Source: a virus (lineage: Duplodnaviria > Heunggongvirae > Uroviricota > Caudoviricetes). From it: DNA of 32,756 bases. Shown piece after piece: positions 8,310 to 9,890 of the stretch. The stretch lies in IMG/VR virus record IMGVR_UViG_2519899562_000018; one strand, written 5' to 3'. The position numbers and the translations under genes are program-made. A model generated the notes under the pieces. It was given only the letters and a program-made list of their open reading frames with translations, ran no database searches and was not told where the DNA came from. Within the stretch, counting starts at the first letter, position 1, and the number at the start of each line of letters is the position of its first letter.

Positions 8310-8861
8310 ATGATGATTTTACAACCCATGGGGCGAAAAGGTCAGGCACCAGCTCATGTCCGTGCGTGGACACCTGAAGAAGATGCGCTGCTGATTGCGC
8401 TTTATCCATCCACCCCGGTTAAGGATATTGCTGTCAGGGTAAAAAGAAGTTTCTGGGGTGTACATAACCGGATTGTTTTATTACGCGGTACTTACCCGGA
8501 GTTGCTCAAATGCAAACGTCCAAGATTTAAACATGATGAAGATAAATTTATCCGAAAAAATGCCAGAACGATGACCGGTAAGCAAATAGGAGAATATCTG
8601 GGGCGAGACCGGGATTCTGTCCACAATCGGGCGCGATATATTGGCGTAAGCATGAAAAAATACGGAGAATTGCTGCCCTTCACCCGTATACCTGACGATG
8701 ATGTTCATCTTATTCGTGAATTACGGGATGCTGAATCACCACGACGTCTTACCTTCCGGGAAATAGGCGAGAAATTTGAATTATCCGAGAGTACGGTGAA
8801 TTTTATTTATCACCATCGCCGGACTGCCGAGGACGCTGTATTACGGGAGTTAACGCCATGA
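8310..8861 (+). CDS. Putative DNA-binding protein with three tandem HTH-like repeats
   Basis: 183 aa; three ~50-aa repeats each with an acidic start and HTH-like end (…RSFWGVHNRIVLL; …RDSVHNRARYIG; …LTFREIGEKFELSESTVNFIYHHRR, the last like LuxR/sigma-70 region 4); first gene of the low-GC island. Confidence 0.55.
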   Translation: MMILQPMGRKGQAPAHVRAWTPEEDALLIALYPSTPVKDIAVRVKRSFWGVHNRIVLLRGTYPELLKCKRPRFKHDEDKFIRKNARTMTGKQIGEYLGRDRDSVHNRARYIGVSMKKYGELLPFTRIPDDDVHLIRELRDAESPRRLTFREIGEKFELSESTVNFIYHHRRTAEDAVLRELTP

Positions 8862-9043
8862 TAAAGAGACTTGTATTTTTCGCAATTTTCGTTCCGGTGT
8901 TGGGGGGTGGTTTTATATTTGCGATTACAGGAAACCTGTCCATGATGCCAGATATTTGGTTCTTTATCAGGATGTCGCTCTTCCTGTTTATTATGAATCT
9001 TCTTATCGACATATATATCCGTATTACTGGAAAACATAAATGA
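8858..9043 (+). CDS. Small hydrophobic membrane protein (two predicted TM helices)
   Basis: 61 aa; LVFFAIFVPVLGGGFIFAITG and IWFFIRMSLFLFIMNLLIDIYI; ATGA overlap with upstream gene; AT-rich. Confidence 0.45.
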   Translation: MIKRLVFFAIFVPVLGGGFIFAITGNLSMMPDIWFFIRMSLFLFIMNLLIDIYIRITGKHK

Positions 9044-9414
9044 GAAAAATCACGTCCTTGTCAGAGTTACAGGAGATGAATATGAGTATTGAATTAAGAT
9101 CGTCTTATGAGTATCGCAAATTTCTTATCGCCGGAGGCATGAAACCGGAAGATGTGGAAAAAATCGTTTCTTTTATGGATAAGGAATGTGATAAGCGGGA
9201 TGTGTCAGAAATTATTATGGATGACATGATTCTGGATTCAGCCGTGGCGTTAAGTCCGTTATGGATTGTGCATTCTCTTGCTGAAATTGCCAAAGGCACC
9301 GATAAACAGGCAGCTGTTGCTGCCCTTCAGACGCTTAATGAAATGCGTATATCTCCACGCCCGACATTAATACATATGATTCTGTCCAGCATGGAGGATA
9401 AAGCAAATGAATAG
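9040..9414 (+). CDS. Hypothetical protein (alternative start ATG 9082 after AGGAG)
   Basis: 124 aa (110 aa from 9082); acidic; part of coupled low-GC cassette. Confidence 0.5.
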   Translation: MRKITSLSELQEMNMSIELRSSYEYRKFLIAGGMKPEDVEKIVSFMDKECDKRDVSEIIMDDMILDSAVALSPLWIVHSLAEIAKGTDKQAAVAALQTLNEMRISPRPTLIHMILSSMEDKANE

Positions 9415-9604
9415 TCTACCCGCTGGATGGGCGCGGCCACTAATGGCCAGGAAGCATCATTTTTTTAAAACAGGCGAAAATATCAGTATATGTGGACGGT
9501 GGTTATATCTGGCTCATAATCGCGAGCCGGATACATTTGAAAGCCCTGATGACTGTGCCGAATGCCGCAGAAGAGTGAATAAGGAGAAAGATAATGGACA
9601 ATAG
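9407..9604 (+). CDS. Small Cys-containing protein (possible zinc-ribbon-like)
   Basis: 65 aa; Cys at 29, 50, 53 (C-x2-C) plus His residues; overlaps neighbours. Confidence 0.4.
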   Translation: MNSLPAGWARPLMARKHHFFKTGENISICGRWLYLAHNREPDTFESPDDCAECRRRVNKEKDNGQ

Positions 9605-9890
9605 TTCTCTGTTGTTCTGGTGCTTATATATCACATCCTTTTTCGGCGCATTTGTTATTACCCGGTGGTTATGTCGAAAAATCATCTGCTTTTTTGATAA
9701 AAGACATCCGGTTGAACGGGCGGCTGATGCGCTCATTCAGCAGGCCATTGTGTTATATAGCGGTGAGTTTTTCTGCCGGATAACAACCAGAGATGGCTGG
9801 CACATAATGATTATTCCACCAACACACCATGCCCGGTGGGATGAGGCAGAAAAGGCTTTCCATGTCCGTAAAAAGGTAAATACGGTATGA
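9594..9890 (+). CDS. Hypothetical protein with N-terminal transmembrane segment
   Basis: 98 aa; N-terminal LLFWCLYITSFFGAFVITRWL hydrophobic helix; overlaps gemA start. Confidence 0.45.
   Translation: MDNSSLLFWCLYITSFFGAFVITRWLCRKIICFFDKRHPVERAADALIQQAIVLYSGEFFCRITTRDGWHIMIIPPTHHARWDEAEKAFHVRKKVNTV

Follow-up and report, generated by a model that had tools for sequence, protein, structure and literature searches.

Five short, closely packed genes in the early operon of a Mu-like prophage may be read either as the parts of a single system or as neighbors that are gained and lost one at a time. This question is raised by positions 8310-9890 of the IMG/VR virus record IMGVR_UViG_2519899562_000018, a stretch of 32,756 nucleotides that is called the window throughout. 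A preliminary description of these positions proposed that they constitute one accessory cassette and a candidate for an undescribed defence or anti-defence system. Our analysis instead indicates that the region probably consists of a conserved gene, designated orfA, followed by a recombination hotspot that houses single early accessory genes (orfB through orfE in the window), and not of one multi-gene system.

A Mu-like prophage of E. coli makes up the window. Over 2.8 kb (bases 7700-10500) its sequence is 100% identical to that of a prophage in the O111:H11 strain 88.0502. Of 5426 complete E. coli genomes, 232 contain similar sequence, and these carriers are mostly Shiga-toxin-producing and are largely strains of O157, O111, O103 and O121. 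Two phage-collection records of the same sequence are labelled "inserted Bacteriophage Mu-like phage". In the literature the Mu-like prophage of O157 Sakai is named Sp18 (PMC2669165) and, judged from the O157 matches, the window would appear to be of the Sp18 type.

Organization and base composition of the block

Five open reading frames (ORFs) on the same strand are present where they had been described, between a gene that resembles Mu gp12 (RefSeq names a homologue "Mu-Gp12 family protein") and gemA:

7791..8306, plus strand: Mu gp12-like gene, the conserved left flank (55% identity to Mu gp12; phrog_2314, 1e-85)
8310..8861, plus strand: orfA, 183 amino acids (aa)
8858..9043, plus strand: orfB, 61 aa
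9082..9414, plus strand: orfC, 110 aa from the probable start (the longest ORF, 9040-9414, has 124 aa)
9407..9604, plus strand: orfD, 65 aa
9594..9890, plus strand: orfE, 98 aa
9887..10396, plus strand: gemA (gp16 family), the conserved right flank (Pfam GemA, 3e-30; 44% identity to Mu GemA)

The AT-richness of the block is borne out by a guanine-plus-cytosine (GC) fraction of 0.435 as compared to 0.545 for the whole window. Segments of equal size with a GC this low amount to 1.8%, all of which are the block itself or the left end near the repressor gene. A comparison with the flanking genes gave the same picture, with GC at third codon positions of 0.39-0.47 in genes of the block versus 0.48-0.65 in their neighbors. 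The overlaps of 1-4 nt that had been reported between adjacent genes hold for orfA/orfB and for orfE/gemA (ATGA, 4 nt), while orfC/orfD and orfD/orfE overlap by 8 and 11 nt, respectively. An overlap of orfB with orfC was not retained since the most probable start codon of orfC is at 9082 and not at 9040, which leaves a 38-nt gap after orfB. AGGAG precedes the ATG at 9082 and no ribosome-binding site precedes 9040, RefSeq annotates a protein of 110 aa, the match to its PHROG family begins at residue 15 and homology with other gene arrangements begins at 9069.

A simple consensus scan of the block found 5 promoter-like sites versus 7.5 expected in shuffled sequence, and a terminator scan found 6 terminator-like sites versus 6.0 expected, with none of the scanned sites bracketing a module. 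A moron, an autonomous insert that is expressed from the prophage, would be flanked by a promoter and a terminator of its own. As no internal signals occur above chance, the block genes look like any other genes of the early operon, and without transcription signals of their own the five are most likely expressed via the long early transcript. A search of positions 7500-11000 with Rfam found no RNA families.

Genes between orfA and gemA are exchanged one at a time

To describe how the block varies we compared 37 related loci, with one locus counted per contig. Between the gp12-like gene and gemA these loci have as little as 1188 bp and as much as 2458 bp, and they exhibit at least six gene arrangements:

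Arrangement 1: orfA, orfB, orfC, orfD, orfE (the window type)
Arrangement 2: orfA, a 103/110-aa gene, a 116-aa gene, orfC, orfD, orfE
Arrangement 3: orfA, orfB, three inserted genes, then orfC, orfD, orfE
Arrangement 4: orfA, a 110-aa gene, a Mu gp13-like gene, a Mu gp14-like gene (L002-type)
Arrangement 5: orfA, a 109-aa gene, a 116-aa gene, a chimeric orfC, a reverse-strand DUF2513 gene
Arrangement 6: orfA, a 103-aa gene, orfE

Pairwise DNA comparison placed the mosaic joints at 8867 (10 nt into orfB), 9050-9069, 9326, 9591 and 9911. These joints are at or beside gene boundaries except for one inside orfC, where the joint at 9326 gives rise to the chimeric carboxyl terminus that is observed in some relatives. 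All versions of the slot share a GC of 0.42-0.47, including the gp13-gp15 genes of Mu itself (0.465). Among the E. coli carriers, orfA is present in 232 of 232 genomes, orfB in 109 and orfC-orfE at 80% coverage or more in 157, with a further class of genomes containing a divergent orfE allele. Single genes are thus lost, swapped or replaced, and the components are not co-inherited across relatives in the manner that defines a multi-gene system. The view of the five genes as one cassette does not survive these counts. What does hold is the more general proposal of a variable, low-GC accessory slot in the semi-essential early region, provided that it is applied to the interval between orfA and gemA.

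The slot is equivalent in position to that of Mu gp13-gp15 (E14, E15) and is interchangeable with Mu-type genes. In both cases short genes with a GC dip are located between the gp12 homologue and gemA on the same strand and in the same operon, and homologues of Mu gp13 and gp14 occupy the same slot in some close relatives (the L002-type loci). The two differ in that orfB-orfE have no match to Mu gp13-gp15 below E = 1 in local blastp and in that the window has an additional conserved gene, orfA, ahead of the slot. A similar phenomenon is known from Mu-like phages of Pseudomonas, where short low-GC accessory ORFs are found in "regions of genomic plasticity", most of which belong to the left arm (Cazares et al. 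2014, PMC4378225). These regions have ORFs of 34-100 codons with zero to six per site, are often GC valleys and differ between otherwise syntenic genomes (PMC4378225). They do belong to another phage group that has no sequence relationship to the slot, and one of them holds anti-CRISPR genes (PMC4378225).

Additional variation was observed beside gemA, where opposite-strand inserts mark a second variable site. In some relatives the reverse-strand DUF2513 gene lies just upstream of gemA (locus L005, 4620-5030, minus strand), and another relative has two genes between gemA and mor, one of 140 aa on the reverse strand and one of 78 aa (locus L006, 4828-5485).

orfA is a conserved anchor with three predicted helix-turn-helix units

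A gene for orfA was found directly after the gp12-like gene in 37 of the 37 related loci, and Mu-like loci that are more distant also have it, with 37-54% identity. In this prophage lineage orfA therefore serves as a conserved anchor and does not count among the acquired accessory genes. The statement that no gene of the block matches a Mu protein fails for orfA, as it exhibits 31% identity (E 5e-9) to Mu gp9 (E8) and both proteins are members of phrog_323. The whole of Mu gp9, which together with SfMu gp09 is the nearest counterpart considered, aligns with residues 66-166 of orfA, matches phrog_323 at 1.3e-28 and is also encoded in the early operon. However, Mu gp9 has only 95 aa that match the second and third helix-turn-helix (HTH) units of the 183-aa, three-unit orfA, and its gene is located upstream of gam whereas orfA follows gp12. 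The distribution of the two genes is complementary, with Mu and SfMu having gp9 and no orfA, and relatives of the window prophage having orfA and no gp9. This pattern is consistent with, though not proof of, functional equivalence of orfA and gp9.

The description of three HTH units in orfA is supported by an AlphaFold2 model (predicted local distance difference test score, pLDDT, of 83) built on 24 homologues. The model is all-helical and contains three three-helix bundles at residues 22-59, 75-110 and 129-169 followed by an extra C-terminal helix. The predicted template modelling score is low (0.45), which fits domains that are placed independently like beads. It should be noted that the claim of a repeat rests on this model, since the repeats are barely visible in a sequence self-comparison (z 0.8-2.1), which is not significant alone. 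The protein is basic (isoelectric point, pI, of 9.9), and residues 2-182 match positions 80-256 of the 319-position phrog_323 profile ("transcriptional regulator, D5-like") with an E of 6.3e-59. On the basis of the model and these matches, orfA most likely binds DNA and acts in early lytic development. It may also regulate transcription, as the phrog_323 label would have it, with that label being an annotation and not an experiment.

Two RefSeq names for orfA homologues were considered. Many homologues are named "AsnC family protein", yet the HTH_AsnC-type match of orfA scores 22.4 bits versus a cut-off of 27 and there is no match to AsnC_trans_reg. Given that the model is all-helical and that the AsnC ligand-binding domain is missing, this name is unjustified and is an apparent misnomer. 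The window protein also stays below the curated cut-off for the other name, Myb/SANT, with a Pfam Myb_DNA-binding score of 14.7 bits versus 24.4. Precomputed Myb matches do exist on some orfA homologues, and the three-helix fold is compatible with a Myb domain.

About twenty further relatives of orfA with 42-48% identity are located in P2-like prophages, directly upstream of replication gene A. The P2-like early operon slot between cox/B and A (orf80-83 in P2) thus also hosts orfA homologues (37-48% identity), but its backbone is unrelated and orfB-orfE are absent there. In P2-like prophages of Salmonella and Citrobacter we observed a recurring set composed of a Dam-type methyltransferase, one or two small ORFs and the HTH protein, the stop codon of which often overlaps the start of gene A. 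When the phage collection was searched with orfA, P2 itself gave no match, and at the equivalent position of P2 only the small orf80-83 are annotated.

A possible, if rather doubtful, explanation of these observations is that orfA regulates the development of the phage itself, for instance transposition, replication or the early-to-late switch, and is not a host-directed accessory gene. In line with such a role, orfA is kept in every relative, each Mu-type early operon has exactly one phrog_323 member, the homologue in P2-like prophages ends on the start of the replication gene, and the phage has a single Mor/C-family activator that is located after a terminator. What speaks against it is that P2 gave no match in the search of the phage collection and has only orf80-83 at this position, and that examination of 10 kb of a distant Salmonella Mu-like locus revealed no phrog_323 protein. 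The orfA protein is thus not universally required.

orfD and orfC have relatives in other phages

The C-x2-C pair that had been noted in orfD is present (C50-x2-C53), and the protein contains an additional cysteine, C29. Together with H18 these three cysteines are invariant in two alignments that extend from E. coli prophages to PB1-like phages, which suggests that H18, C29, C50 and C53 form a metal site. With four invariant candidate ligands, orfD may be a small zinc-binding protein. It is a member of phrog_2358 (5e-34), and 197 phage records contain a homologue, among them those of PB1-like Pseudomonas phages. In a Mu-like prophage of Salmonella, for example, the homologue immediately precedes gemA, and others were found in several lytic coliphages and in temperate elements of Citrobacter that have early genes of the Cro/Q type. 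In every case the homologue lies amid small early or replication-region genes. A Kunitz/BPTI identity was considered for orfD and rejected. Kunitz/BPTI domains contain six cysteines in three disulfides. PF00014 is the top Pfam family for two of eight members of the orfD family and there is a marginal reciprocal profile match to PDB sequences (E 0.006), neither of which is borne out by the predicted fold.

The acidic character of orfC was confirmed, though it is mild (pI 4.96). orfC is a member of phrog_1988 (7e-45) along with gp14 of SfMu, to which it has 37% identity (E 2e-15). SfMu gp14 is an extra gene of SfMu relative to Mu, and orfC has no match in Mu itself below E = 1 in local blastp. 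Consequently, the absence of a Mu counterpart is correct for Mu and incorrect for its relative SfMu.

With its breadth among phages, orfD is the most attractive single lead in the block. It is conceivable, albeit unlikely, that one of the individually mobile modules, with orfD as the best candidate, or alternatively the often-linked orfC-orfD-orfE trio is an undescribed early effector that acts on a conserved host target or immune system. If this is true, then selection for counter-defence or host takeover would explain why this effector has repeatedly been captured by the early regions of unrelated phages.

orfB and orfE are predicted membrane proteins

Hydropathy analysis agrees with the description of orfB as a double transmembrane peptide, with hydrophobic segments at about residues 4-24 and 33-55, and of orfE as anchored at its amino terminus, with one hydrophobic segment at about residues 4-24. 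Both proteins are predicted to insert into the inner membrane. The orfB module has its edges at the 8867 and 9050-9069 joints and other relatives have unrelated genes of 103-110 aa and 116 aa in its place. Its PHROG match is weak (6.5e-05), and a tblastn search of the phage collection found orfB in the same prophage type only. orfE is a member of phrog_17269 and exists as two alleles that are about 50% identical. An exhaustive HMMER search of 1.84 billion representatives recovered only orfE itself, fragments and the 49% allele, plus two long multi-stretch matches that look spurious. orfE is thus confined to this prophage lineage.

Class II holins, or pinholins, are small proteins with two membrane segments whose genes sit beside that of the endolysin in the late lysis cassette. 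orfB has the two segments, yet it is an early-operon gene about 1.9 kb and three genes upstream of the lysozyme gene (10963), and we have rejected this assignment.

Superinfection-exclusion factors are typically small inner-membrane proteins, and the predicted topology of orfB and orfE would suit such a function. That one or both are exclusion or lysogenic-conversion factors made in the prophage state is nevertheless improbable. Both genes do vary between relatives, and there is low-level Pe transcription through the semi-essential genes in Mu lysogens (PMC3820752). However, promoter-like sites are not above chance upstream of either gene, both genes are deep in a repressor-controlled operon, and no similarity to known exclusion proteins was found.

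The block as a defence system or as chance reading frames

We obtained no positive evidence for an undescribed defence or anti-defence system. PADLOC-DB 2.0 contained nothing for orfB-orfE, and for orfA it gave only a weak "homing endonuclease" match (E 0.008) that lies over the HTH units. PADLOC analysis of the alternative slot genes of relatives gave nothing significant. Pfam and NCBIfam searches with all five proteins yielded nothing beyond generic sub-threshold HTH matches for orfA, and PDB sequence searches with orfA, orfC, orfD and orfE yielded nothing significant aside from the marginal BPTI match of the orfD profile. The fold comparison that had been suggested was undertaken with the orfA and orfD models and gave nothing specific to defence or anti-defence.

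Accordingly, we regard it as very unlikely that the five genes, or orfB-orfE, are one co-working defence or anti-defence system. Such a system would be in keeping with genes that are on one strand, tightly packed and partly overlapping, with their low GC, with their location in a region of transposable phages where accessory genes accumulate (PMC4378225) and with the joint presence of orfC, orfD and orfE in most E. coli carriers. It is at odds with the presence of orfB in just 109 of 232 carriers, with orfE occurring without orfC and orfD (loci L006, L024 and L033), with orfC occurring without orfD and orfE (L005-type loci) and with orfD occurring alone in unrelated phages. Furthermore, orfA is kept whatever follows it and is also found alone in P2-like prophages, and the sole PADLOC match is the weak and generic one of orfA. 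The parts assort independently, and this argues against a single system. A defence or anti-defence role of individual genes is speculation.

Finally, the idea that the small ORFs are chance reading frames in an AT-rich spacer, for which one could cite that they are short, AT-rich and without a curated-family match, is effectively refuted by nonsynonymous/synonymous ratios of about 0.1-0.5 for each of the five ORFs (calculated with alleles from related loci), by strong PHROG matches of orfA, orfC, orfD and orfE (1e-32 to 1e-59, with that of orfB being weak), by the retention of length in divergent alleles and by Shine-Dalgarno-like GGAG or AGGAG motifs 5' of orfB, orfC, orfD and orfE and a G-rich GGGGG 5' of orfA. 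Given these ratios, all five ORFs are genuine genes under purifying selection.

Proposed model: a conserved gene followed by a hotspot of single accessory genes

The semi-essential genes of Mu are largely uncharacterized, are carried on the Pe transcript and are weakly transcribed in lysogens (PMC3820752). In our model, the region under study would be the distal part of such a semi-essential early operon, with genes that are close-packed on the operon strand, and the five proteins would be produced from the long early transcript soon after induction. orfA would bind DNA via its HTH units and serve early development. The interval from orfA to gemA, equivalent in position to Mu gp13-gp15, would be a recombination hotspot at which short AT-rich genes are exchanged singly, and in the window this slot holds four unrelated modules, orfB, orfC, orfD and orfE. 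The orfB product would be a membrane hairpin peptide, that of orfE an N-terminally membrane-anchored protein, and orfD may bind a metal ion plus a macromolecular partner. Each of the orfB-orfE proteins would act alone as a dispensable accessory protein that is host-modulating or related to competition.

Several observations weigh against this model or some of its parts. orfC-orfD-orfE is the commonest combination, being together in 157 of 232 carriers and in more with the second orfE allele, and there may be a functional link among these three genes. A Foldseek comparison of the orfA model with the PDB recovered generic multi-HTH proteins alone (a CRISPR repeat-binding protein, sigma factors, SNAPc and the Tc3 transposase), with a best E of 0.19. 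The orfD structure model is of moderate confidence (pLDDT 71). In addition, a weak or non-sigma-70 promoter could escape the simple consensus used in the promoter scan, and literature searches did not find a functional study of the five genes.

Gene order around the block and other sites in the window

The order of genes in this part of the window is Gam, gp10-like, gp11-like, gp12-like, the five ORFs, GemA, a hairpin, the Mor/C-family gene and the lysozyme gene. In addition to the features given above, these include:

6084-6614: Gam
between the gp10-like and gp12-like genes: gp11-like gene (Pfam Gp11_C)
10401..10424, plus strand: strong terminator-like hairpin just 3' of gemA, with a 9-bp stem, 5 G-C pairs and then a T-run
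10466-10891: Mor/C-family activator, the sole Mor/C-family gene, with the lysozyme gene directly 3' of it at 10963

The hairpin is probably the end of the early operon. Since a terminator separates gemA from the single Mor/C-family gene and the lysozyme gene is next, the phage seems to be without the separate middle operon of Mu (gp18-gp20 plus C). The Mor/C-family protein is 39% identical to Mu C versus 27% identical to Mu Mor.

Upstream of gam, positions 4728-6072 contain five small genes between B and gam that have no Pfam-level identity and, in pairwise comparison, no resemblance to Mu gp6-gp9. The second of these genes is named "Kil protein family" by RefSeq in one genome. Low GC (0.38-0.43) is also found at 251-1250 at the left end, around a minus-strand 203-aa HTH gene that is the probable repressor, and GC of 0.46-0.47 is found at 31751-32500 near the right end. 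The highest GC in the window (0.65-0.66), along with a strong positive GC skew, is located at 26251-27000 in the late region. RefSeq annotates a "tRNA-OTHER" in the identical prophage between the head-morphogenesis and virion-morphogenesis genes (L003 19397-19476), which corresponds to about 18096-18175 on the minus strand of the window. ARAGORN found no tRNA in the whole window, and a local GC dip (0.50) is present at about 18096-18175.

Implications

The region is an ordinary example of a known phenomenon, namely that transposable phages hold accessory genes in plasticity regions of low GC. Two points are put right by this analysis, the RefSeq name "AsnC family protein" for orfA and the treatment of the block as one system. 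The analysis also defines an exchangeable slot in the Mu-like prophages of many Shiga-toxin-producing E. coli, with joints located to within about 20 nt, and sets a conserved gene that is predicted to bind DNA apart from the exchangeable small genes that follow it. Those small genes provide a shortlist for screening that is headed by orfD, owing to its breadth across phages, and continues with the two predicted membrane proteins.

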